Origin: Candidatus Brocadia sp.
GTDB taxonomy: Bacteria; Planctomycetota; Brocadiia; Brocadiales; Brocadiaceae
DNA: 32,000 bases
Direction of reading: 5' to 3'
NCBI GenBank assembly: GCA_021650915.1
Contig: CP091279.1
Location: 3,090,001-3,122,000 of the forward strand
The position numbers were made by a program, and so were the translations under genes. This document shows positions 6,736 to 30,468 of this stretch, piece after piece (positions within the stretch are counted from its first letter, which is position 1; every line of letters begins with the position of its first letter). Under the pieces are notes generated by a model. The model had not been told where the DNA came from. It made no database searches and saw only the letters and a program-made list of their open reading frames with translations.

Positions 6736-7333
6736 CTTTTCACGAATGTCCTTTGCCTTTTTTGTTTATGCGTCATTTGAAGATAAACATGATGAAAAAT
6801 GTTATAAGGAATATGATTATGGGTTTTTGCATGTGATTTATACTGGAATAGACAAAATACAGGGTGGAGTGTTCTATGGCGAAAAGGCTGTCAAGTCGGC
6901 CTTTGGTAAGAATAAAGAAAAGGAAAGTAAGTACCTGAAATTACTGAATAAAATAGATCAGTTGGTTGAAGAAATTGCAAAAGTAGCTGGCATCTTTAAG
7001 AGGGAGTCGGAGAAAAAGTATAGAAAGAACAAAAGTATGACTTATAATGTCTATTTGCAAGAGTAATAACATTTGTATTGTAATCGCTCGCCATATTTGA
7101 TAATTTTCTTTTTGCTTATAAGTAGGATAGAACATTGCATAAAAGCAACCTGCGTATCTTTGTGAGTAACTGTACGGATAGAAATAGTGGATGATTATCA
7201 AAGATGGTTCTATTACGATTTACGATAAGGGCTGGAAGGCAAAGGGATACGGGAAGGTGGAACAATAACTTAATTCCGGTTCTACCTTGCTTGTTCTCAA
7301 ACCTTGTGCTGGATCTGTTTAAGCATCTTTTTT

Positions 7334-7364
7334 GCTCGTTCCCAAACGGAGTTTGGGAACGAGC
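7334..7364. repeat. Perfect 14-bp-stem hairpin (palindromic element)
   Basis: GCTCGTTCCCAAAC gga GTTTGGGAACGAGC. It is preceded by a T-run on the plus strand and has no downstream U-tract in either orientation. Confidence 0.6.
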
Positions 7365-7452
7365 CATACTGAAAACAGGGCGCCGAGACCATTGCACTCC
7401 TGAACCATGTTTATTGGCGCAAACAAAGCGAAGGGTAGAGAGATGAGATGAG

Positions 7453-18043: not shown

Positions 18044-18120
<77 letters not shown>

Positions 18121-18312: not shown

Positions 18313-18350
18313 ATAGTTTTTTCAGAAGATGAGAGGGGGTGATGTTAAGA

Positions 18351-18551
18351 ATGGCAAACGGGACCGTGAAATGGTTCAATGACAAGAAGGGATTCGGATT
18401 TATTTCTCAGGATAATGGCGATGATGTTTTTGTACATCAAAGTTCTATTCAGTCCGAAGGATTTAGGACCCTTGCAGAAGGGGACAAAGTCGAGTTTGAG
18501 ATCATAAAGGACCAAAAGGGCTACAAGGCCACAAAAGTTGTTAAATTATAA
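18351..18551 (+). CDS. cspA: Cold-shock protein, CspA family
   Basis: [18 protein letters not shown] (RNP1) and DVFVHQSSI (RNP2), 66 aa. I prefer the ATG at 18351 over the GTG at 18339. Confidence 0.92.
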
Positions 18552-18660
18552 ACCCGTAAAAAAGCACACTCTTATATTTAGAGAATAATCAGTTCCTTTA
18601 GATGTGATTTATAAAAATATGGAGTAAGTACTTAACGCATAGTTATAATTACAACCCGGA

Positions 18661-18700
18661 AACCCCAATATCAGTAAAAGGATATTGGGGTTTTTGTTTT
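18661..18700 (+). terminator. Rho-independent terminator of cspA
   Basis: AACCCCAATATC agtaaaag GATATTGGGGTT followed by TTTGTTTT. Confidence 0.75.
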
Positions 18701-18800
18701 GATTTCCAGTTGTTTTCTATCTTCTTTTTGTGCTATATTCTTTAGTGAAAGGACGCACCGCCTTTTCGGTGTCTTATTCTCAAAATGCAGGATTTTTTCC

Positions 18801-19751
18801 ATGAAAAGAGAAGAAAATAAACAAACAAAAATTGCGATTGTAATACCTGTCTACAACAGAAAAGCACATACCTTGAATTGTTTGCGTCAGCTTCAGATGA
18901 TAGATAAAACGGGGATGGATATCACGATTGTTGTCGTAGATGATGGCTCAAGTGACGGTACTTCTGAACTGGTTGCCACTGAATATCCCGAGGTAGTAAT
19001 TCTTCGCGGTGATGGGAATTTGTGGTGGAGCGGAGCGACAAATATGGGGGTTAAATATGCCTTAGACCAGAAGAGTGATTATGTATTAGCCTTAAATGAC
19101 GATGTTGAGTTTCAAGGTGATTTTCTGGTGCAGTTACTCAAAACCGCTAAGAGTTATGACAATACGATTGTTTGTGGAATAGTTTGTGATACTGACAGGA
19201 AAGATAAAATTATGTCTGCTGGTCTCCGTGCAAAAGGATTCCTGAATTACATCTATACCGGTCATTTATCTGGCGCTGACGTTTCTGCTTTGCCAGAAAA
19301 TGAGTTTGCGAGTGATATTACCGCTGGCCGTGCGGTGTTAATTCCAACGGAGGTTTTTCGGGAAGTAGGTTTGTTTGATGCCCAGAAGTTTCCCCATCAC
19401 ATGGGAGATATGGATTTTATATTAAGGGCTAAAAAGAAAGGATTTAAAGTCCTTGTCAATCCCAGGTCTTTCGTATATACAAAGATTGGCGACAATTATT
19501 TCCCAATACAAATAATAGAAAAATCGGTGTGGCAGAATATTAAGGGCTTTTTTCATGTAAAGTCAACGGTTAATTTTCGTACACGATGGAATTTTTATTT
19601 GCGGCATACCCCTTACTTTTTGGGATGGATATCATTTTTGTATTTTTGCTTAAGAATGAGCATTGTAATTATTTATAAGATACTCATGCCAAAACAGATG
19701 CTGGTCCGAGTAATGAAGAAAAGAAGCTTGAAGGTGCAATCTATGAAATAA
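18801..19751 (+). CDS. Family 2 glycosyltransferase with C-terminal membrane segment
   Basis: IAIVIPVYNRKAHTLNCL, VVVDDGSSDGT and the LALNDDVEF (DxD-type) motif. C-terminal hydrophobic WISFLYFCLRMSIVIIY. I prefer the ATG at 18801 (MKREENK) to the ORF-track start at 18699. Confidence 0.85.
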   Translation: MKREENKQTKIAIVIPVYNRKAHTLNCLRQLQMIDKTGMDITIVVVDDGSSDGTSELVATEYPEVVILRGDGNLWWSGATNMGVKYALDQKSDYVLALNDDVEFQGDFLVQLLKTAKSYDNTIVCGIVCDTDRKDKIMSAGLRAKGFLNYIYTGHLSGADVSALPENEFASDITAGRAVLIPTEVFREVGLFDAQKFPHHMGDMDFILRAKKKGFKVLVNPRSFVYTKIGDNYFPIQIIEKSVWQNIKGFFHVKSTVNFRTRWNFYLRHTPYFLGWISFLYFCLRMSIVIIYKILMPKQMLVRVMKKRSLKVQSMK

Positions 19752-19778: not shown

Positions 19779-19807
19779 TTGATATTAATTAATATAGATG
19801 TTATAAT
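19779..19807 (+). promoter_or_regulatory. Candidate sigma70-type promoter (extended -10) for the riboswitch leader and giant gene
   Basis: TTGATA (19779-19784), 17-nt spacer, TGtTATAAT (19799-19807). Caveat: the region is very AT-rich and overlaps a small hairpin plus T-run (19806-19840) that could be the GT2 terminator. Confidence 0.45.
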
Positions 19808-19860
19808 GCTATTTCATTTTTTAATAGCATCTGTTTTTTTTAAATAAGAGGGTAAGCAGT

Positions 19861-19970
19861 CAAACCGATAAAGGCAAACCCTGAGTGATCAGGGGGCGCA
19901 AAGTAAAGGGTCTTAAACTTACAGGGACGTAGAGACGGAGAACCAGAAAAAGACAGCCTTACTGCCGAAG
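19861..19970 (+). promoter_or_regulatory. GEMM-I-like (c-di-GMP class I) riboswitch aptamer, copy 1
   Basis: AGGCAAACC, then the helix CCCTGA-GUGA(GNRA)-TCAGGG, then GGCGCAAAG. Second helix GTCT-TAAAC-yTAC[AGGGAC]GTAG-AGAC, then AGCCTTACTGCCGAAG. The order and spelling of these blocks match GEMM-I (Vc2: GGCAAACC..GAAA..GGGACGCAAAGCC..AGCGGGGUUACCGA). Matched by eye, no covariance model run. Confidence 0.7.
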
Positions 19971-20011
19971 ATGTTGTGTTGAATATCTTTGCAGTAAGGC
20001 TTTTTTATTTT
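19955..20011 (+). terminator. Expression-platform terminator of riboswitch copy 1
   Basis: AGCCTTACTGC-cg-AAGAT [gttgtgttgaat] ATCTT-t-GCAGTAAGGCT followed by TTTTTATTTT. The 5' arm overlaps the 3' strand of the aptamer. Confidence 0.75.
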
Positions 20012-20204
20012 AATCGGAAAGAGTTGGTTTCAGGCCTTCGCTGATGGTGCAGGCTAAAAACGCTTTTATGCTGCTAAAAAGCAAAAAATGGAGGGTTGTG
20101 AACTCTCCATAACAATTTATTTGCGAGGTAGTTATGAAATAATTTTAAATAATGTGATTGTAATAACTAAGGTTTGATTTGTCCTGCCTCTTTTAAATAA
20201 CAGG

Positions 20205-20314
20205 CAAACCGATAAGGGCAAACCCTGAGTGATCAGGGGGCGCAAAGTAAAGGGTCTTAAACCTACAGGGACGTAGAGACGGAGAACCAGAAAAAGACAG
20301 CCTTACTGCCGAAG
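20205..20314 (+). promoter_or_regulatory. GEMM-I-like (c-di-GMP class I) riboswitch aptamer, copy 2
   Basis: Direct repeat of 19861-19970 at +344 bp, with a few substitutions (for example GGGCAAACC versus AGGCAAACC, and AAACCTAC versus AAACTTAC). Confidence 0.7.
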
Positions 20315-20355
20315 ATGTTGTGTTGAATATCTTTGCAGTAGGGCTTTTTTATTTT
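20299..20355 (+). terminator. Expression-platform terminator of riboswitch copy 2
   Basis: Same hairpin as 19955-20011. The one A>G change in the 3' arm (GCAGTAGGGCT) converts a U-A pair to U.G, so pairing is retained. T-run follows. Confidence 0.75.
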
Positions 20356-20447
20356 AATCGGAAAGAGTTGGCTCAAGATTTTTATCGATGGTGAAGGCAT
20401 ACAAGTAATTTTGGCGCTGTTTAAAAGTAAGAAATGGAGGACTATGA

Positions 20448-23180
20448 ATGTTCCATAACCTTTTTGTTCGTGAGATATCCGTTAAACAGACTATCTTGGG
20501 ATGCAAGGGTAACAAAGTTCTATATACGCTCTTCTTTTCTTGTGTATTTCTTTTCTTTGTTTTTCAGCAAGCTTATGCACAAGATTTAATACCTCCCACT
20601 GTGAGCGCAACGAGTCCTGTCGGGAATGAGGTTGGGGTGGACATCTACAGCGCTATAGCGGTAACGTTCAGTGAGGAGATGGACGCCAATACGATAACGA
20701 CGGCAACGTTTATAGTGACCGATGGGGTAACGCCGGTGGTGGGTACGGTGGACTACGCAGGGACAACTGCTACGTTTACCCCGATAGGGAATCTGTCATA
20801 TGCTACGAATTATACGGCGACGATTACAACGGGTGCGACAGATTTGGCAGGTAATGCACTAGTTGCGAACTATAGCTGGGGTTTTACGGCGGGAGCCGCG
20901 CCTCCTCAGGGCCTCCAGGCGTATTATGCGCTCGACGAGGGAAATGGTACCGTCGCAAATGATTTATCGGGTAACGGGAATGATGGCACTATTAATGGCG
21001 CTGCCTGGTCCACGGGCAAAGGTGGGGGAGGCTTGAGTTTTGACGGAAGCAATGACTCTGTGGCCGTTCCCCGTATGAATAATGATGAAGTCTCTGTTTG
21101 TGCCTGGTTCTATAAAAATACAAATGATCTCACGAGGAATGACGCTCTATTCAGCGGTTATAGGCATAGCTCAAATCAACAACTTCGCGAGGGATTTGAA
21201 TTACGATTTCCTGCAAGCGCCCCCAATAGAATTGAGTTTGTACTCGTGACACAAGATGGAAACGGTGTAAGGACAACAAGGACGACCCGGAGAAGTTTCA
21301 TCAATTCCGCCGGGAGTTGGTATCACGTCGTAGGTACTTACAATAAAACAACCGGTATACAGAAGTTATATGTCAACGGAGAGGTAGTTCATACACAGAC
21401 TCATGTACCAGGGAATACAATCGTGCCACTTGTCTTTTACGCTGATATGCGAATCGGATATTCAAGGGTCAACAACGGTTATTTCAATGGTGTTATTGAC
21501 AATATCCTTCTTTACAATCGTGTCCTTGATGACAAAGAAATAAGGGATTTATACAATGCCTTTACTTTTGGACTGCAGGCACGATATGCATTCAGTGAAG
21601 GGACGGGAATAATTGTCGGTGATTCTTCGGGAAATGGCAATCACGGAAGTATTAGTGGGGGGGCCGCATGGACGTCAGGGAAAAACGGAGGCGGTTTGAA
21701 TTTTGATGGCATTAACGACCGCGTATCAATTCCGCGTATGAACTACGATGAGGTGTCTGTTGGTGCATGGTGCTATAAAAATGCGAACGATGCCAGCAGA
21801 AACGATGCAATTTTTAGTGGATTCCGGAATAATTCCAACGTGCAACTCTGTGAGGGTTTTGAATTGCGATTCCCAGCAAGCGCGCCCAATACTGTTCAGT
21901 TCCTCCTGGTAACCCAGAATGGAAGTGGTGTAAGGACACTGAGGACGGCCCAGTGGGATTTAGGAAATTCCGTGGGAAGCTGGTACCACGTTACCGGTAT
22001 TTATAGCAAAGCAACGGGGGAACAAAGGCTCTATGTGAATGGTCAACTGGTGAATACTCAAACGCATCCTGCCGGGAATACCATTGTGCCGCTTACCCAA
22101 AATTCTGATATGAGGATAGGACATTCATGGGTAAATAACGGGTATTTCCATGGTATTCTTGACGATGTCAGACTTTACAAACAGGTACTGAGCGATCAGG
22201 AAGTATTGGATTTATTTAATAGCCCGACGGTAAGCGCGACGAGTCCCGTGAGCAATGAGACGAACGTGGCGGTCAACGGAGCGATAACGGTGACGTTCAG
22301 CGAGGCGATGGACGCCAATACGCTAACGACGGCGACGTTTAGCCTGACGGACGGAGTGACGCCGGTGACGGGCGCGGTGAGTTATACGGGTACGACGGCG
22401 ACGTTTACGCCGACGGGCAGTTTGTCGTATGCGACCAGCTATACGGCGACGGTTACGACGGGGGTGACGGACCTGGCGGGCAATGCGCTGGGAGCGAATT
22501 ACGTATGGGGATTTACGACAGGGGCGGAGCCTGACGTGACGGCGCCGACGGTAAGCGCGACGAGTCCCGTGAGCAATGAGACGAACGTGGCGGTCAACGG
22601 AGCGATAACGGTGACGTTCAGCGAGGCGATGGACGCCAATACGCTAACGACGGCGACGTTTAGCCTGACGGACGGAGTGACGCCGGTGACGGGCGCGGTG
22701 AGTTATACGGGTACGACGGCGACGTTTACGCCGACGGGCAGTTTGTCGTATGCGACCAGCTATACGGCGACGGTTACGACGGGGGTGACGGACCTGGCGG
22801 GCAATGCGCTGGGAGCGAATTACGTATGGGGATTTACGACAGGGGCGGAGCCTGACGTGACGGCGCCGACGGTAAGCGCGACGAGTCCCGTGAGCAATGA
22901 GACGAACGTGGCGGTCAACGGAGCGATAACGGTGACGTTCAGCGAGGCGATGGACGCCAATACGCTAACGACGGCGACGTTTAGCCTGACGGACGGAGTG
23001 GCGCCGGTGACGGGCGCGGTGAGTTATACGGGTACGACGGCGACGTTTACGCCGACGGGCAGCCTGTCGTATGCGACCAGCTATACGGCGACGGTTACGA
23101 CGGGGGTGACGGACCTGGCGGGCAATGCGCTGGGAGCGAATTACGTATGGGGATTTACGACAGGGCGGAGCCTGACGTGA
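20448..23180 (+). CDS. Giant surface protein, fragment 1: signal peptide, Ig-like (Big_5/SbsA-type) domain, two LamG-like domains, repeat units 1-3
   Basis: PPTVSATSPVGNEVGV..TFSEEMDANTIT..TATFTP..YTATITTGATDLAGNAL (Ig-like). Two copies of LQAYYALDEGNGT..DLSGNGNDGT..GGGGLSFDG.. W.H..G.Y..LYVNGE (LamG/ConA-like). Ends TTGRSLT* after the G-run contraction. Confidence 0.8.
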   Translation: MFHNLFVREISVKQTILGCKGNKVLYTLFFSCVFLFFVFQQAYAQDLIPPTVSATSPVGNEVGVDIYSAIAVTFSEEMDANTITTATFIVTDGVTPVVGTVDYAGTTATFTPIGNLSYATNYTATITTGATDLAGNALVANYSWGFTAGAAPPQGLQAYYALDEGNGTVANDLSGNGNDGTINGAAWSTGKGGGGLSFDGSNDSVAVPRMNNDEVSVCAWFYKNTNDLTRNDALFSGYRHSSNQQLREGFELRFPASAPNRIEFVLVTQDGNGVRTTRTTRRSFINSAGSWYHVVGTYNKTTGIQKLYVNGEVVHTQTHVPGNTIVPLVFYADMRIGYSRVNNGYFNGVIDNILLYNRVLDDKEIRDLYNAFTFGLQARYAFSEGTGIIVGDSSGNGNHGSISGGAAWTSGKNGGGLNFDGINDRVSIPRMNYDEVSVGAWCYKNANDASRNDAIFSGFRNNSNVQLCEGFELRFPASAPNTVQFLLVTQNGSGVRTLRTAQWDLGNSVGSWYHVTGIYSKATGEQRLYVNGQLVNTQTHPAGNTIVPLTQNSDMRIGHSWVNNGYFHGILDDVRLYKQVLSDQEVLDLFNSPTVSATSPVSNETNVAVNGAITVTFSEAMDANTLTTATFSLTDGVTPVTGAVSYTGTTATFTPTGSLSYATSYTATVTTGVTDLAGNALGANYVWGFTTGAEPDVTAPTVSATSPVSNETNVAVNGAITVTFSEAMDANTLTTATFSLTDGVTPVTGAVSYTGTTATFTPTGSLSYATSYTATVTTGVTDLAGNALGANYVWGFTTGAEPDVTAPTVSATSPVSNETNVAVNGAITVTFSEAMDANTLTTATFSLTDGVAPVTGAVSYTGTTATFTPTGSLSYATSYTATVTTGVTDLAGNALGANYVWGFTTGRSLT

Positions 23181-26046
23181 CGGCGCCGACGGTAAGCGCG
23201 ACGAGTCCCGTGAGCAATGAGACGAACGTGGCGGTCAACGGAGCGATAACGGTGACGTTCAGCGAGGCGATGGACGCCAATACGCTAACGACGGCGACGT
23301 TTAGCCTGACGGACGGAGTGACGCCGGTGACGGGCGCGGTGAGTTATACGGGTACGACGGCGACGTTTACGCCGACGGGCAGTTTGTCGTATGCGACCAG
23401 CTATACGGCGACGGTTACGACGGGGGTGACGGACCTGGCGGGCAATGCGCTGGGAGCGAATTACGTATGGGGATTTACGACAGGGGCGGAGCCTGACGTG
23501 ACGGCGCCGACGGTAAGCGCGACGAGTCCCGTGAGCAATGAGACGAACGTGGCGGTCAACGGAGCGATAACGGTGACGTTCAGCGAGGCGATGGACGCCA
23601 ATACGCTAACGACGGCGACGTTTAGCCTGACGGACGGAGTGACGCCGGTGACGGGCGCGGTGAGTTATACGGGTACGACGGCGACGTTTACGCCGACGGG
23701 CAGTTTGTCGTATGCGACCAGCTATACGGCGACGGTTACGACGGGGGTGACGGACCTGGCGGGCAATGCGCTGGGAGCGAATTACGTATGGGGATTTACG
23801 ACAGGGGCGGAGCCTGACGTGACGGCGCCGACGGTAAGCGCGACGAGTCCCGTGAGCAATGAGACGAACGTGGCGGTCAACGGAGCGATAACGGTGACGT
23901 TCAGCGAGGCGATGGACGCCAATACGCTAACGACGGCGACGTTTAGCCTGACGGACGGAGTGGCGCCGGTGACGGGCGCGGTGAGTTATACGGGTACGAC
24001 GGCGACGTTTACGCCGACGGGCAGCCTGTCGTATGCGACCAGCTATACGGCGACGGTTACGACGGGGGTGACGGACCTGGCGGGCAATGCGCTGGGAGCG
24101 AATTACGTATGGGGATTTACGACAGGGGCGGAGCCTGACGTGACGGCGCCGACGGTAAGCGCGACGAGTCCCGTGAGCAATGAGACGAACGTGGCGGTCA
24201 ACGGAGCGATAACGGTGACGTTCAGCGAGGCGATGGACGCCAATACGCTAACGACGGCGACGTTTAGCCTGACGGACGGAGTGACGCCGGTGACGGGCGC
24301 GGTGAGTTATACGGGTACGACGGCGACGTTTACGCCGACGGGCAGTTTGTCGTATGCGACCAGCTATACGGCGACGGTTACGACGGGGGTGACGGACCTG
24401 GCGGGCAATGCGCTGGGAGCGAATTACGTATGGGGATTTACGACAGGGGCGGAGCCTGACGTGACGGCGCCGACGGTAAGCGCGACGAGTCCCGTGAGCA
24501 ATGAGACGAACGTGGCGGTCAACGGAGCGATAACGGTGACGTTCAGCGAGGCGATGGACGCCAATACGCTAACGACGGCGACGTTTAGCCTGACGGACGG
24601 AGTGACGCCGGTGACGGGCGCGGTGAGTTATACGGGTACGACGGCGACGTTTACGCCGACGGGCAGCCTGTCGTATGCGACCAGCTATACGGCGACGGTT
24701 ACGACGGGGGTGACGGACCTGGCGGGCAATGCGCTGGGAGCGAATTACGTATGGGGATTTACGACAGGGGCGGAGCCTGACGTGACGGCGCCGACGGTAA
24801 GCGCGACGAGTCCCGTGAGCAATGAGACGAACGTGGCGGTCAACGGAGCGATAACGGTGACGTTCAGCGAGGCGATGGACGCCAATACGCTAACGACGGC
24901 GACGTTTAGCCTGACGGACGGAGTGACGCCGGTGACGGGCGCGGTGAGTTATACGGGTACGACGGCGACGTTTACGCCGACGGGCAGCCTGTCGTATGCG
25001 ACCAGCTATACGGCGACGGTTACGACGGGGGTGACGGACCTGGCGGGCAATGCGCTGGGAGCGAATTACGTATGGGGATTTACGACAGGGCGGAGCCTGA
25101 CGTGACGGCGCCGACGGTAAGCGCGACGAGTCCCGTGAGCAATGAGACGAACGTGGCGGTCAACGGAGCGATAACGGTGACGTTCAGCGAGGCGATGGAC
25201 GCCAATACGCTAACGACGGCGACGTTTAGCCTGACGGACGGAGTGACGCCGGTGACGGGCGCGGTGAGTTATACGGGTACGACGGCGACGTTTACGCCGA
25301 CGGGCAGCCTGTCGTATGCGACCAGCTATACGGCGACGGTTACGACGGGGGTGACGGACCTGGCGGGCAATGCGCTGGGAGCGAATTACGTATGGGGATT
25401 TACGACAGGGGCGGAGCCTGACGTGACGGCGCCGACGGTAAGCGCGACGAGTCCCGTGAGCGATGAGACGAACGTGGCGGTCAACGGAGCGATAACGGTG
25501 ACGTTCAGCGAGGCGATGGACGCCAATACGCTAACGACGGCGACGTTTAGCCTGACGGACGGAGTGGCGCCGGTGACGGGCGCGGTGAGTTATACGGGTA
25601 CGACGGCGACGTTTACGCCGACGGGCAGCCTGTCGTATGCGACCAGCTATACGGCGACGGTTACGACGGGGGTGACGGACCTGGCGGGCAATGCGCTGGG
25701 AGCGAATTACGTATGGGGATTTACGACAGGGGCGGAGCCTGACGTGACGGCGCCGACGGTAAGCGCGACGAGTCCCGTGAGCAATGAGACGAACGTGGCG
25801 GTCAACGGAGCGATAACGGTGACGTTCAGCGAGGCGATGGACGCCAATACGCTAACGACGGCGACGTTTAGCCTGACGGACGGAGTGACGCCGGTGACGG
25901 GCGCGGTGAGTTATACGGGTACGACGGCGACGTTTACGCCGACGGGCAGTTTGTCGTATGCGACCAGCTATACGGCGACGGTTACGACGGGGGTGACGGA
26001 CCTGGCGGGCAATGCGCTGGGGTCGAATTACGTATGGGGATTTACG
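22216..26046 (+). repeat. Tandem array of 12 near-identical 321-bp (107-codon) coding repeats
   Basis: Junction motif GGGGCGGAGCC begins at 22521, 22842, 23163, 23483, 23804, 24125, 24446, 24767, 25088, 25408 and 25729 (period 321, or 320 at the two contracted junctions). The only other variants I found by eye are gtgAcg/gtgGcg (T/A), agtttg/agcctg (synonymous) and aat/gat in unit 11. Confidence 0.95.
23147..25105 (+). CDS. Giant surface protein, fragment 2: repeat units 4-9 (listed Met start is an artefact)
   Basis: Six near-identical 107-aa units. The first residues, MGIYDR, are the YVWGFTT codons read in the shifted frame. No SD and no signal peptide. Confidence 0.6.
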   Translation: MGIYDRAEPDVTAPTVSATSPVSNETNVAVNGAITVTFSEAMDANTLTTATFSLTDGVTPVTGAVSYTGTTATFTPTGSLSYATSYTATVTTGVTDLAGNALGANYVWGFTTGAEPDVTAPTVSATSPVSNETNVAVNGAITVTFSEAMDANTLTTATFSLTDGVTPVTGAVSYTGTTATFTPTGSLSYATSYTATVTTGVTDLAGNALGANYVWGFTTGAEPDVTAPTVSATSPVSNETNVAVNGAITVTFSEAMDANTLTTATFSLTDGVAPVTGAVSYTGTTATFTPTGSLSYATSYTATVTTGVTDLAGNALGANYVWGFTTGAEPDVTAPTVSATSPVSNETNVAVNGAITVTFSEAMDANTLTTATFSLTDGVTPVTGAVSYTGTTATFTPTGSLSYATSYTATVTTGVTDLAGNALGANYVWGFTTGAEPDVTAPTVSATSPVSNETNVAVNGAITVTFSEAMDANTLTTATFSLTDGVTPVTGAVSYTGTTATFTPTGSLSYATSYTATVTTGVTDLAGNALGANYVWGFTTGAEPDVTAPTVSATSPVSNETNVAVNGAITVTFSEAMDANTLTTATFSLTDGVTPVTGAVSYTGTTATFTPTGSLSYATSYTATVTTGVTDLAGNALGANYVWGFTTGRSLT

Positions 26047-29000
26047 ACGACCGCTGTTGCGCCTCCCCAGGGCCTGCAGGCGTATTATCCGTTTGATGAG
26101 GGAAATGGGACGGTTGCAAGCGATTCATCGGGTAGTGGTAACAATGGCGCCATCAGTGGGGCAACCTGGACTACCGGTAAGAGTGAGGGGGGATTGAGTT
26201 TTGATGGGATTAATGATTATGTTGACCTTGGTGATCCGTTGTCACTCCAGCTAGGGAATGTCTCTGTTTCTGCCTGGTTTAAAACCACGGCTACGAGTGG
26301 CGTAATTGTTCGTAAGCGAGCGTATGGATATGGCCTTGATGTATGGAGTTCAGGAAGGATTTCTTTTTGGATTTATAATTCTGCTGCGACCCTATTCAGA
26401 GCGAGTTCCCCGCTTGCCTATAATGACAATGTATGGCACCACGCAGTTGGTGTTTACGACGGTTCCACAGTTAAGTTATATATAGATGGTAATCAGGTTG
26501 CCTCAGCAAGCGCAGGGACGATCTTTTACGGAGCGGGAGGAATTGCAATAGGCCGTGATGGAAATTCCAGCGGGTCTTATTTCGGAGGTTTGTTAGATGG
26601 GGTAAGCATTTATGATCAGGCGTTGAGTTCGCAGGACGTAATGAATTTATTTAATAACCCCGGATTGTTCGATGCAACGCCACCCACCGTGAGCGCAACG
26701 AGCCCGGCCAATAATGAGACGGGAGTGGAACTCAATAGTCCCGTCACTGCCACGTTTAGCGAGACGATGAATGCATCGACCATAAATGCGGCCACGTTCA
26801 CCGTAAACAGCGGGAATGGCCATATTGACGGGACGGTGTCCTACAGTGGAGTCGTGGCCACCTTTACACCCACAAGCAATTTGACGTATGGTGTTACCTA
26901 CACGGCAACGATTGCCACGGCCGTAAAGGATGCTGCCGGCAATGCACTAGCTGCAAACTACACGTGGAGCTTTACCGCAGGACCTCCTGACATGGTGCCG
27001 CCAACGGTAAGCGCAACGAGTCCTGCTGCGGATGAGATGGGGGTAACCATTTATGACTCCATTACTGCTACATTCAGTGAGGCAGTGGACCCAACGACAA
27101 TAACGACGGCCACGTTTAGCGTTACCGATGGAGTTACACCGGTGACGGGCACGGTGAGCTATACAGGGACGACGGCGACGTTTACGCCGGCGAGCAGCCT
27201 GGCATATGCGACCAGCTATACGGCAACCATTACAACGGGCGTAACCGATCCGGCGGGTAATGCCATGGCCTTGGATTACAGTTGGGGCTTTACCACAGGA
27301 CAGCCAGATGTGTCTCCACCGACGGTAAGTACAACGAGTCCGGCAAACAATGAAGTCAATGTAGCCGTTAGCAAAGTGATAGCGGTGACGTTCAGCGAGG
27401 TGATGGACGCCAATACGCTAACGACGGCGACGTTTAGCCTGACGGACGGTGTGACGCCGGTGGCGGGCGCAGTGAGTTATACGGGTACGACGGCGACGTT
27501 TACGCCGACGGGCAGCCTGTCGTATGCGACCAGCTATACGGCAACCATTACAGCGGGGGTGACGGACCTGGCGGGCAATGCGCTGGGGTCGAATTACGTA
27601 TGGGGATTTACGACGACCGCTGTTGCGCCTCCCCAGGGCCTGCAGGCGTATTATACGTTTGATGAGGGAAATGGGACGGTTGCAAACGATTCATCGGGTA
27701 GTGGTAACAATGGCGCCATCAGTGGGGCAACCTGGACTACCGGTAAGAGTGAGGGGGGATTGAGTTTTGATGGGATTAATGATTATGTTGACCTTGGTAA
27801 TCCGTTGTCACTCCAGCCGGGCAATGTCTCTGTTTCTGCCTGGTTTAAAACTACGGCAACGAGTGGCGTAATTGTTCGTAAGCGAGCGTATGGATATGGT
27901 CTTGATATCGTGAGTTCAGGAAGGATATCTTTTTGGATTTATAATTCTGCCGGCACTCTTTTCAGGGCGCAATCTCCGCTTGCCTATAATAACAATGTGT
28001 GGCACCATGCAGTTGGTGTTTACGACGGTTCCACAGTTAAGTTATATATAGATGGTAATCAGGTTGCCTCAGCAAGTGCCGGGACGATCTTTTACGGGGC
28101 GGGAGGAATTGCAATAGGCCGTGATGGAAATTCCAGCGGTTCTTATTTCGGAGGTTTGTTAGATGGGATAAGCATCTATGATCAGGCGTTGAGTTCGCAG
28201 GACGTAATGAATTTATTTAATAACCCCGGATTGTTCGATGCAACGCCACCCACCGTGAGCGCAACGAGCCCGGCCAATAATGAGACGGGAGTGGAACTCA
28301 ATAGTCCCGTCACTGCCACGTTTAGCGAGACGATGAATGCATCGACCATAAATGCGGCCACGTTCACCGTAAACAGCGGGAATGGCCATATTGACGGGAC
28401 GGTGTCCTACAGTGGAGTCGTGGCCACCTTTACACCCACAAGCAATTTGACGTACGGTGTTACCTACACGGCAACGATTACCACGGCCGTAAAGGATGCT
28501 GCCGGCAATGCACTAGCTGCAAACTACACGTGGAGCTTTACCGCAGGACCGCCTGGTTCAATAATACCTTCAGTAATCAAAACCCTTCCCGTTAGTAATG
28601 CAGCCAATGTGGCAGTTAACAGCGCTATCAACGTTATATTCAGCCAGGTGATGGATGCATCAACTATTAATACGTCCACATTTACCGTAAGTGACGGGAA
28701 CACCAATATCGAGGGGATGGTTTCCTGTAGTGGAATGACGGCCACCTTTACTCCATCAGGCAGTTTGGCGTATGCCGCCCCCTATACCGTAACGATCACC
28801 ACGGGGGTAAGGAGTTCATCAGGCAGCGCCATGGCTGAGGATTATACGTGGGGCTTTACTGCTGTGAGTGCACAGGAGGAAATGATACCCGACTGGACAA
28901 ATGTACTCTATAGCCCATTTCAACTCGTGTCTCCAACGGAGGTTACCAATCCGGTACAGAAGGGAAGCGACGTAACAGAGTATCCGGCAGATATGGTTGC

Positions 29001-30468
29001 AGATACGTTTCTTTTTTACGAGAACAATACCTGGTATATGTTCAATGAAATCTTAGGCAGTGGACATAATGGTGATCTTGCTGTTTCTCTGAGTTCCGAT
29101 GGATTGCACTGGACGTATCAACAGTTTGTGCTTGATGAGCCTCATCATCTTTCATACCCCCAGGTATTTAAATTTGGCGGTGAGTATTATATGCTGCCGG
29201 AGACGTCTGCCGTCAATGAAATAAAACTCTACAAGTCTACGGATTTCCCCTATACCTGGACACCCGTGTCTGTCCTTATCAGTGGCAAGGCATTTGTTGA
29301 TTCATCCATCTTCCGATATAACGGTAAGTGGTGGATCTTTACGGGTAATGCAACGATTAGTGATTGTTATTTGTATTATTCTGACAATCTGACCAGCGGG
29401 TGGATTGAGCATCCCATGAGTCCGCTTGTAACTGGCGATCCCAATAAGACGCGGCCTGCCGGGAGGGCCTTTGTGTACGACAACAACCGGGTCATTCGAA
29501 CCGCGCAGAACGGCGAATTCGTGAGGGTCTTTGAGGTTGATACCCTGACGACGACACAATATGCGGAGCATGAGATACCCGAGAGCCCCATTCTGAATAA
29601 AAGCGGGAGTGGTTGGAATGCAACGGGTATGCATCAGTTCGACCCGTGGTGGACGGGAAATCACTGGATTTGTTCGGTTGATGGGAGAAGCGGTAGTTAT
29701 AATACCTGGTCTGCGGGGATATACCTTTCATCACAACCGTCTTCTCCGAATGGCATTATTAATAGCCCTGCTGCTAATGTGACGATCGACAAAGGGGATT
29801 CAGTGCTATTTTCCGGCACGGGGAGTGATCTGGGCGGTAATCTGCCGCTGGGTTACCGGTGGAAGTTCGGTCCGGGTTCCGGAATTCCTGATTCCCTGCT
29901 GGAGGATCCTGGTCTAACGCAGTTCAATATCGCGGGCACTTTTACGGTTAGCTTTACCGTCACGGATGCCCTGGGAATTTATGATCCTACCCCCGGGATA
30001 CGGACCATTTCCGTTCTCGGCGCCTCTACTCCGATTCCGATGACGAACTGGAGTCTGTGGTATGTGGACAGCCAGGAGTCGGTAGGGGAGAATGCACCGG
30101 CAGTCAATGCCTTTGATGAGAATCCCGGTACGTACTGGCATACGAAATGGTTTCAGGGTTCTGATCCATTGCCCCATGAGATTCAGATAAATCTGGGGGC
30201 GGTGTATAATGTCAGTGGTTTCAGATATTTACCGCGCACAGATGATGAGGATAATGGCCGGATTAAGCACTGGGAGTTCTACGTGAGTATGGATGGGACG
30301 AATTGGGAGAGTGCAGTGGCTACGGGGATTTTTGTTAATGATGCCCTGGAAAAGGAGGTCTTTTTTCCGCAAAAGGCAGGGCAATATGTGCGCCTGAGGG
30401 CGTTGTCCGAGGTTAATAATAATCCGTGGACATCCATGGCAGAGATTACCGTATTGCAAAGCCAGTAA
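25072..30468 (+). CDS. Giant surface protein, fragment 3: repeat units 10-12, LamG, 3 Ig-like, LamG, 2 Ig-like, GH-like beta-propeller, PKD, F5/8 type C (discoidin) domain
   Basis: Propeller-like: ADTFLFYENNTWYMFNE..HHLSYPQVFKFGGEYYMLPETS..IKLYKSTDFPYTW..VDSSIFRYNGKWWIF..RPAGRAF..VIRTAQN. PKD: VLFSGTGSDLGGNLPLGYRWKFG..FTVSFTVTDALG. Discoidin: AVNAFDENPGTYWHTKW..PHEIQINLG..VSGFRYLPR..GRIKHWEFYVS.DGTNW..YVRLRALSE. Confidence 0.8.
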   Translation: MGIYDRAEPDVTAPTVSATSPVSNETNVAVNGAITVTFSEAMDANTLTTATFSLTDGVTPVTGAVSYTGTTATFTPTGSLSYATSYTATVTTGVTDLAGNALGANYVWGFTTGAEPDVTAPTVSATSPVSDETNVAVNGAITVTFSEAMDANTLTTATFSLTDGVAPVTGAVSYTGTTATFTPTGSLSYATSYTATVTTGVTDLAGNALGANYVWGFTTGAEPDVTAPTVSATSPVSNETNVAVNGAITVTFSEAMDANTLTTATFSLTDGVTPVTGAVSYTGTTATFTPTGSLSYATSYTATVTTGVTDLAGNALGSNYVWGFTTTAVAPPQGLQAYYPFDEGNGTVASDSSGSGNNGAISGATWTTGKSEGGLSFDGINDYVDLGDPLSLQLGNVSVSAWFKTTATSGVIVRKRAYGYGLDVWSSGRISFWIYNSAATLFRASSPLAYNDNVWHHAVGVYDGSTVKLYIDGNQVASASAGTIFYGAGGIAIGRDGNSSGSYFGGLLDGVSIYDQALSSQDVMNLFNNPGLFDATPPTVSATSPANNETGVELNSPVTATFSETMNASTINAATFTVNSGNGHIDGTVSYSGVVATFTPTSNLTYGVTYTATIATAVKDAAGNALAANYTWSFTAGPPDMVPPTVSATSPAADEMGVTIYDSITATFSEAVDPTTITTATFSVTDGVTPVTGTVSYTGTTATFTPASSLAYATSYTATITTGVTDPAGNAMALDYSWGFTTGQPDVSPPTVSTTSPANNEVNVAVSKVIAVTFSEVMDANTLTTATFSLTDGVTPVAGAVSYTGTTATFTPTGSLSYATSYTATITAGVTDLAGNALGSNYVWGFTTTAVAPPQGLQAYYTFDEGNGTVANDSSGSGNNGAISGATWTTGKSEGGLSFDGINDYVDLGNPLSLQPGNVSVSAWFKTTATSGVIVRKRAYGYGLDIVSSGRISFWIYNSAGTLFRAQSPLAYNNNVWHHAVGVYDGSTVKLYIDGNQVASASAGTIFYGAGGIAIGRDGNSSGSYFGGLLDGISIYDQALSSQDVMNLFNNPGLFDATPPTVSATSPANNETGVELNSPVTATFSETMNASTINAATFTVNSGNGHIDGTVSYSGVVATFTPTSNLTYGVTYTATITTAVKDAAGNALAANYTWSFTAGPPGSIIPSVIKTLPVSNAANVAVNSAINVIFSQVMDASTINTSTFTVSDGNTNIEGMVSCSGMTATFTPSGSLAYAAPYTVTITTGVRSSSGSAMAEDYTWGFTAVSAQEEMIPDWTNVLYSPFQLVSPTEVTNPVQKGSDVTEYPADMVADTFLFYENNTWYMFNEILGSGHNGDLAVSLSSDGLHWTYQQFVLDEPHHLSYPQVFKFGGEYYMLPETSAVNEIKLYKSTDFPYTWTPVSVLISGKAFVDSSIFRYNGKWWIFTGNATISDCYLYYSDNLTSGWIEHPMSPLVTGDPNKTRPAGRAFVYDNNRVIRTAQNGEFVRVFEVDTLTTTQYAEHEIPESPILNKSGSGWNATGMHQFDPWWTGNHWICSVDGRSGSYNTWSAGIYLSSQPSSPNGIINSPAANVTIDKGDSVLFSGTGSDLGGNLPLGYRWKFGPGSGIPDSLLEDPGLTQFNIAGTFTVSFTVTDALGIYDPTPGIRTISVLGASTPIPMTNWSLWYVDSQESVGENAPAVNAFDENPGTYWHTKWFQGSDPLPHEIQINLGAVYNVSGFRYLPRTDDEDNGRIKHWEFYVSMDGTNWESAVATGIFVNDALEKEVFFPQKAGQYVRLRALSEVNNNPWTSMAEITVLQSQ
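25810..28551 (+). repeat. Segmental duplication inside the giant gene: ~1.18-kb block (end of an Ig unit + LamG + Ig domain) present twice, offset 1566 bp
   Basis: 25810-26985 aligns with 27376-28551. The ORF track shows identical shadow ORFs at 26012/27578 and 26616/28182. Scattered substitutions only. Confidence 0.8.

Follow-up and report, generated by a model that had tools for sequence, protein, structure and literature searches.

Two complete class-I c-di-GMP riboswitches predicted in series ahead of a giant surface-protein gene of Candidatus Brocadia

The 5' leader of a gene coding for a giant surface protein in the anammox bacterium Candidatus Brocadia sp. (Planctomycetota) probably contains two complete, canonical class-I riboswitches for cyclic di-GMP (c-di-GMP), also known as GEMM-I, which are arranged in series and predicted to operate as serial ON switches; we put the probability of this reading at about 0.82. 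The leader lies in a 32,000-nucleotide (nt) stretch of assembly GCA_021650915.1 (contig CP091279.1, forward-strand positions 3,090,001 to 3,122,000), hereafter called the window, and coordinates are counted from its first letter. An earlier note, made from the sequence alone, had described two tandem GEMM-I-like aptamer and terminator units at this place, and the class that it proposed is upheld by covariance-model matches, conserved pocket nucleotides and covariation in relatives. The features of the locus, all on the + strand, are the following.

19779..19807, + strand: sigma-70-like promoter, TTGATA-17 nt-TATAAT with an extended -10 TG (11/12 hexamer matches)
19864..19970, + strand: aptamer 1, class-I c-di-GMP (Rfam family RF03167, 66.1 bits; model R1, 96.8 bits; pair counts in relatives)
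19950..20011, + strand: intrinsic terminator 1 (-29.1 kcal/mol, z = -7.1 against shuffles; inverted repeat)
20012..20200, + strand: spacer between the units, a probable diverged relic of duplicated leader, ribosome-binding site (RBS) and coding start, followed by a degraded promoter copy
20208..20314, + strand: aptamer 2, class-I c-di-GMP (RF03167, 64.3 bits; model R1, 94.6 bits)
20294..20355, + strand: intrinsic terminator 2 (-28.8 kcal/mol, z = -6.8 against shuffles)
20436..20450, + strand: RBS GGAGG (20436-40) and ATG start codon (20448), from the sequence and the list of open reading frames (ORFs)
20448..30468, + strand: gene predicted to be regulated, coding for a secreted protein of ~3,340 amino acids (aa) and assembled as ORFs 20448-23180, 23147-25105 and 25072-30468

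Scanning the whole window against Rfam returned three matches above gathering score, namely the two aptamers and one tRNA, and the covariance models gave the aptamers window-wide E-values of 1e-13 and 3.5e-13. Model R1, the source of the second scores listed above, is a covariance model made from relatives of these aptamers. All the sequence blocks that the earlier note had listed are present in both copies and in the stated order: GGCAAACC; a 6-base-pair (bp) helix, CCCUGA/UCAGGG, with a GUGA cap; GGCGCAAAG; GGGUC-UUAAAC; and AGCC..CUGCCGAAG. In aptamer 1, helix P1 is made of 19866-67/19966-67, helix P2 of 19874-75/19898-99 and the GUGA-capped 19879-84/19889-94, and helix P3 of 19902-19912/19952-19963 with a distal insertion of ~39 nt. 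The P2 tetraloop, GUGA here, is GCGA, GUAA or GCAA in relatives, and the UUAAAC stretch, a putative receptor, belongs to the portion of P3 left unpaired by the model.

The nucleotides forming the ligand pocket are conserved. Based on the Rfam alignment and the sequence, G20, A47 and C92 (Vc2 numbering) correspond to 19873, 19900 and 19965 in aptamer 1 and to 20217, 20244 and 20309 in aptamer 2. The interhelical C44-G83 pair has its equivalents, recognized by sequence, in C19897-G19956 and C20241-G20300, and both columns are invariant in 14 Brocadiales sequences. The roles of G20, A47, C92 and C44-G83 in c-di-GMP-I aptamers are described in PMC4744006, and the Vc2 aptamer of Vibrio cholerae, which serves as structural reference, shares all of these with the Brocadia aptamers, together with a GNRA-capped P2 and a UAAAC-containing P3 (PMC4744006). 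Compared to Vc2, the Brocadia aptamers have a shorter P1, a longer P3 and a transcription-terminator platform, and they bear G instead of A at position 43. Aptamer 2 differs from aptamer 1 by two changes, one at 20216 (position 19, A to G) and one at 20263, where U.G in the distal P3 hairpin is replaced by C-G.

A strong hairpin and a U-run come after each aptamer, as had been noted before (about -29 kcal/mol, z ~ -7, U6). Terminator 1 consists of a lower stem (19955-19965, AGCCUUACUGC, with 19991-20001), an upper stem (19967-75/19982-90) and a tail of U6 (20001-20006), A and U4. In terminator 2 the lower stem (20299-20309/20335-20345) has one G.U pair in place of an A-U pair of terminator 1 and is followed by U6 (20345-20350). 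Both hairpins thus pair AGCCUUACUGC with GCAGUA(A/G)GGCU in the lower stem and GAAGAUGUU with AAUAUCUUU in the upper stem, ahead of six U residues. The terminator 5' arm (19955-19965 in unit 1) consists of the P3 3' strand together with C92, an overlap of hairpin arm and aptamer strand that the earlier note had also seen. Aptamer and terminator are consequently expected to be mutually exclusive, which argues for an ON switch in each unit. We infer c-di-GMP binding, the ON direction and the efficiency of termination.

Folding energies agree with such a design. For the full unit 1 the terminator conformer reaches -48.9 kcal/mol versus -27.8 kcal/mol with the aptamer enforced, and for the full unit 2 the values are -52.3 versus -29.0 kcal/mol. 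Since the enforced aptamer secondary structure is less stable than the terminator conformer by about 21-23 kcal/mol, termination should be the default state. In the ligand-free RNA the terminator would form and RNA polymerase would halt at ~20006 or ~20350; once c-di-GMP is bound, the aptamer would retain P3 and C92, the terminator would fail to nucleate and transcription would go on. The 3' arm of terminator 1 (19991-20009) also forms an inverted repeat with the 3' strand of P3 in unit 2 (20291-20309), to which it is complementary. More speculatively, in a read-through transcript the freed 3' arm of terminator 1 could cross-pair with unit 2, as the near-identity of the units would permit, and thereby couple the two decisions beyond simple multiplication.

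A comparable architecture is known from Bacillus thuringiensis, in which the Bc3-5 triple tandem of the cspABCDE 5'-untranslated region likewise consists of near-identical, complete c-di-GMP-I switches in series, each with its own terminator (PMC4759541). The Bc3-5 terminator shares nucleotides with the ligand-pairing C, P1 and the 3' side of P3, so that c-di-GMP, by the mechanism proposed for Bc3, Bc4 and Bc5, turns transcription ON; the Brocadia architecture matches this arrangement (PMC4759541), and the ON direction proposed in the earlier note gains support from the analogy. Experiments on Bc3-5 showed that more units give a more stringent and more digital response (PMC4759541). The two systems differ in number and host, Bc3-5 having three units in a member of the Bacillota and the Brocadia locus, known from sequence alone, two units in a member of the Planctomycetota. 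Unlike Bc3-5, the Brocadia units carry a GUGA loop on P2 and the ~39-nt distal P3 insertion, and they precede a single gene coding for a ~3,340-aa Big_5/LamG/discoidin protein.

The serial arrangement depends on where transcription starts. The promoter at 19779-19807, with a transcription start expected at ~19814, is the sole good match that the + strand offers upstream of the gene, and it is intact in a diverged Brocadia lineage (L254, described below). No promoter was called before unit 2 by the sigma-70 consensus scan; the homologous stretch reads AAATAA..GTAATAA and has lost the -35 hexamer as well as the T in position 6 of the -10 element. A single promoter near 19814 would drive one transcript spanning both units, and a full-length mRNA would then need read-through at both, resulting in a lower basal level and a steeper rise with c-di-GMP than a single switch would give. 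The sharper response that the earlier note had attributed to two switches in series is also the published interpretation of such arrangements (PMC9481103), albeit its wording as an AND-like response is loose, both inputs being the same ligand. Same-ligand aptamers with separate expression platforms have been termed 'pseudo-cooperative' and explained by binary lifestyle switches (PMC9481103); the Brocadia tandem, with two aptamers that each have their own hairpin and U6, falls into this category.

The tandem was found in three independent assemblies besides the window, which belong to the same or a sister lineage and were the only ones informative on its conservation. One of them, GCA_000987375.1 (L001), is listed among anammox genomes (PMC10156729). 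Its whole leader is 100% identical to that of the window, and therefore the tandem is not an assembly artefact; one window protein was also found unchanged in it. We take this assembly to be Ca. Brocadia fulgida. The two others, L253 and L254, represent a diverged lineage of Candidatus Brocadia sp. in which both units are present, 378 nt apart. Between the window and L254, terminator 1 is 100% identical and aptamer 1 is 94.6% identical, with the aptamer changes confined to position 43 (G in the window, A in L254) and the distal P3 insertion, while identity drops to 85% in the leader and spacer next to them, where there is also a 31-nt indel. The same two sequences are 100% identical from ~20175 onward, through unit 2 into the coding sequence (20175-20480), and only 85-95% identical upstream; this step in identity is suggestive of recombination or gene conversion with a boundary in the spacer.

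Comparison of the two units points to their origin. The two 167-bp direct repeats with an offset of 344 nt that had been reported are real, the block starting at 19861 having only 3 mismatches with the second copy (19872 A/G, 19919 T/C and 19997 A/G), but they understate the extent of the repeat. Our repeat finder matched 19857-20054 to 20201-20398 without gaps (92% identity, 344 nt offset) and detected, behind each copy, the inverted repeat of the hairpin; a full alignment of both units extended a weaker likeness over the whole ~344-346 nt, including a degraded promoter copy, an RBS, a start codon and ~10 codons. This similarity, which covers the whole leader and the coding start, indicates that the pair most probably arose via tandem duplication of a ~345-nt segment comprising the promoter, aptamer, terminator, RBS and first codons. 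The upstream copy would subsequently have lost its RBS and start codon and the downstream copy its promoter. Remnants of the former are still recognizable in the spacer, in which a GGAGG copy (20090-94) is followed at 20102 by ACT in place of the ATG start codon and by a frame that closes a few codons later. The relic RBS and start codon (20088-20110) are located inside a 10-bp hairpin, AUGGAGGGUU/AACUCUCCAU, and the 20080-20125 segment folds with -13.5 kcal/mol (z = -3.45). A structured RBS as a second, translational layer of control was considered and rejected, as only the spacer relic is structured and the real RBS region gives z = 0.3 against shuffles. A small upstream ORF at the conserved GATGGTG.AGGC after each terminator was rejected as well (22 versus 6 codons, no usable RBS spacing).

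Decay has not affected all parts of the duplicated segment equally: the units are 97.4% identical in the aptamer and 97.1% identical in the terminator versus only 61-66% in the flanks, and the differences inside helices all keep pairing, U.G being replaced by C-G in the distal P3 hairpin and A-U by G.U in the terminator. These observations bear on the explanation that competes best with two switches in series, namely that only unit 2 is functional, unit 1 being a decaying by-product of the duplication, or that unit 2 has its own promoter, so that the units would not act in series. The duplication did carry non-regulatory sequence along (promoter, RBS and coding start), and the divergence of unit 1 from L254, next to the complete identity beyond ~20175, makes unit 1 the more variable copy. 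Yet the core of aptamer 1 and the entire terminator 1 are unchanged in L254 despite the changes in the adjoining spacer, and every helix-internal difference between the units retains pairing. In addition, the promoter copy before unit 2 is damaged in both hexamers, and unit 1 separates the gene from the only good promoter, a position in which a terminator of -29 kcal/mol would block expression unless it were regulated. We regard this explanation, in either form, as unlikely.

Several other points weigh against two functional switches in series. Minimum-free-energy folding of the aptamer alone misses P3 (z = -1.7), a failure that is usual for folds depending on ligand and tertiary contacts, and P1 is just 2-3 bp long. 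The high identity of the units could result from recent gene conversion instead of selection. The sequence also leaves room for a weak promoter before unit 2 that would be invisible to a sigma-70 consensus scan, promoters of Planctomycetota being poorly characterised. Finally, the two best full-length homologues on long contigs, LamG/Big_5 genes from two further anammox-type genomes (47-50% identity; L250 and L251), lack an aptamer in the 4 kb upstream of them, so the association of the riboswitch with the target gene is lineage-specific. A further homologue on a short contig (L252) has no aptamer either, and we consider these three genes paralogues or unregulated homologues. A metagenome scan with the N-terminal 400 aa retrieved only relatives of ~30-37% identity, matched via LamG, and an aptamer was found in 0/80 of their loci.

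The covariance-model check that the earlier note had suggested gave significant matches within the expected clan, with a different family on top. Both copies score best with the Rfam family RF03167, 'c-di-GMP-I-GGC' (66.1 and 64.3 bits versus a gathering score of 59), not with RF01051; two lower-scoring matches of the same clan (CL00126) are suppressed by clan competition, and the second clan family is above its own threshold. Taken at face value, RF03167 as the best-scoring family above its gathering threshold in both copies would place the aptamers in a variant class with an altered pocket and perhaps a ligand other than c-di-GMP. In the printed alignment, the RF03167 consensus reads ...GGGACGCGAAgCc... 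and both copies read ...GGGGCGCAAAGUA..., with near-identical flanks (CGAnAAAGGCAAACC ... AGCCnnnCUGCCGAAG). The consensus (GACGCGAAg) departs from the canonical CGCAAAG at one core position, which is the equivalent of Vc2 A47: the consensus has G and both window copies have A. We presume, from the model consensus, that 'GGC' stands for G20/G47/C92; the study defining the variant is reportedly Weinberg et al. 2017 (PNAS). The papers that we found naming the GGC variant give no definition of GGC.

As a test of the label, we scanned a genome collection with a pattern in which positions 43 and 47 could each be A or G. The 121 matches, in 120 loci, comprised 79 with A43/A47 and 42 with G43/A47, and G47 occurred in 0/121 related aptamers of this pattern scan; G43, as seen in the window, is a common natural variant (42/121). 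Viral contigs were scanned to calibrate the DNA pattern, and most of their 'G47' matches lack the P2 helix and lie in apparent GC-rich coding sequence. Rfam was then rerun on 16 loci, 15 from the pattern scan and one viral contig (L035). All A47 aptamers examined (19/19) received the RF03167 label, with scores of 60-76 bits versus the gathering score of 59, and fully canonical GGGACGCAAAGCC aptamers from metagenome-assembled genomes (MAGs) of Rokubacteria and Deltaproteobacteria scored 71.8-76.5 bits, above the window copies. RF01051 was assigned to only 1/20 aptamers (L161, 7273-7371), the sole one that does not read CGCAAAG at that site. Because canonical A47 aptamers from other phyla are labelled RF03167 too, the label tracks overall similarity to the lineage of the model and not the variant nucleotide, and a score at or above gathering does not set the variant apart from canonical aptamers. 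With A at the A47 equivalent of both copies, membership in the variant class is very improbable. We assign both RNAs to the canonical class-I c-di-GMP aptamers because A47, G20, C92 and C44-G83 are present and because canonical aptamers elsewhere get the RF03167 label as well. Since clan competition tags canonical aptamers as 'c-di-GMP-I-GGC', annotation pipelines relying on the top hit will over-report this class, the ligand of which may differ.

GEMM-I variants binding cyclic AMP-GMP (c-AMP-GMP) exist and can adjoin c-di-GMP versions, their selectivity being due to a change, at a position left unnamed, in a key pocket nucleotide that contacts a ligand base (PMC9481103). That the Brocadia aptamers sense 3'3'-cyclic GMP-AMP (3'3'-cGAMP; GEMM-Ib) or are promiscuous among cyclic dinucleotides is equally hard to credit, for although the units differ at position 19, beside G20, both keep G20 itself (19873, 20217) and the surface-protein target suits c-di-GMP biology. 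The nucleotide governing c-AMP-GMP selectivity is presumably position 20, changed from G to A.

The canonical aptamers and their terminators recur in related bacteria. Our genome scan revealed 14 copies of the same aptamer and terminator cassette at 11 loci, which come from MAGs of Brocadia, Brocadiaceae, Scalinduaceae and unclassified Planctomycetota. In the alignment of these 14 copies, 96.8% of the aptamer pairs are paired, 5 pairs are changed on both sides and P2 shows covariation; the terminator is 96.4% paired, with a compensatory GCCUUGCUGC/GCAGCAAGGC exchange in a Scalinduaceae copy. A Kuenenia copy (L100) has a different expression platform. The genes behind the cassettes code for signal-peptide proteins with TPR, CHRD, 3D, CarboxypepD_reg, Peptidase_C25 or BNR domains. 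At one of these loci, in a Planctomycetota MAG from Lake Tanganyika, a second complete tandem was found (L143; 6115-6206 and 6662-6752, 547 nt apart), ahead of a gene for a protein of >397 aa without Pfam match. Another MAG (L161) bears two cassettes 7 kb apart (94-181 and 7273-7371), before a gene for a 1,284-aa C25 (gingipain-like) peptidase and a BNR-repeat gene.

A conserved terminator, AGCCUUACUGCCGAAG..GCAGUAAGGCU6, fused to a canonical GEMM-I aptamer and recurring before genes for secreted or surface proteins, leads us to propose that the cassette defines a Brocadiales-wide, lineage-specific c-di-GMP regulon of such proteins, a proposal whose chances we consider even. If it is true, the doubled switch would be a direct, digital link from intracellular c-di-GMP to cell aggregation or granulation in anammox reactors. 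Levels of c-di-GMP correlate with extracellular polymeric substance (EPS) production and with granulation in anammox sludge (PMC11224092), and the matrix in Brocadia is known to include abundant immunoglobulin-like (Ig-like) surface proteins (PMC7482068), which are compared with the target protein by description only. For anammox bacteria, our literature search found no paper on riboswitches or on any effector of c-di-GMP. Two Brocadia MAGs have the cassette ahead of a gene for a conserved, lysine-rich protein of 89 aa with a CxxC...CxxC pattern and no Pfam match (L085, 1454-1944; L111, 4213-4730). Conceivably, this protein is a small regulator of the zinc-ribbon type that c-di-GMP controls.

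Tandem c-di-GMP-I riboswitches are common. A survey by Sherlock et al. (2022, PMC9481103) counted 347 doublets and 12 triplets, more than in any other riboswitch class. The earlier note had therefore overstated the novelty of the locus, c-di-GMP-I tandems before surface proteins being the most frequent tandem riboswitch type known; it is a further example of a well-known arrangement in an under-studied phylum. Among 100 sampled genome loci with a c-di-GMP-I aptamer, ~22 had a second aptamer on the same strand within 1.1 kb. Some doublets are spaced by just 90-190 nt from start to start (L116, L137, L148, L070, L090, L084, L099, L065 and others), and the MAGs with such close doublets are numerous and unrelated, belonging to Armatimonadota, Acetothermia, Anaerolineales, Syntrophomonadaceae and Acidobacteria. 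Some of them may be too tight for a full intervening terminator and would then represent dual-aptamer arrangements. For RNA biology, the Brocadia locus adds one more tandem c-di-GMP-I case and alters no concept. For anammox biology, a predicted riboswitch-gated gene for a giant adhesin-like protein is a concrete, testable target in genetically intractable organisms, and read-through at two defined terminators could serve as an in-situ reporter of c-di-GMP in metatranscriptomes.

According to Pfam, the predicted target protein combines ~18 Big_5 Ig-like repeats with four Laminin_G_3 (LamG) domains, a GINT1_N-like domain and, at the C-terminus, an F5/8 type C (discoidin) domain. Its N-terminus is signal-peptide-like (..FLFFVFQQAYA/QD) and is 99% identical to a protein named as Candidatus Brocadia sp. 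The gene of ~10 kb that the earlier note had described is divided into three ORFs as assembled and becomes one after two small corrections. The splits are due to two identical 1-nt deletions in a G4 run, at 23157-23166 and 25082-25091 (within 22224-26048). Both ORF junctions lie in identical stretches of 181 nt that are 1,925 bp apart, inside a 321-bp unit repeated 11.9 times with 99% identity; 9/11 repeat junctions read GGGG (ACAGGGGCGG), the exceptions being those at the two ORF breaks, with GGG (ACAGGGCGG). Restoring one G per break yields a single ORF of 3,340 aa with a signal peptide. The GGG runs are most likely consensus errors in the repeat, and possibly real frameshifts.

Upstream of the riboswitch promoter, a glycosyltransferase gene (18699-19751) is preceded by a small gene for a cold-shock-domain protein (~18340-18590) and, before that, by a tRNA-Met (CAU) gene (18044-18120). 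Outside the repeats of the giant gene, the window and L001 differ by a single 1-nt indel at 18518, where the L001 cold-shock gene maps.

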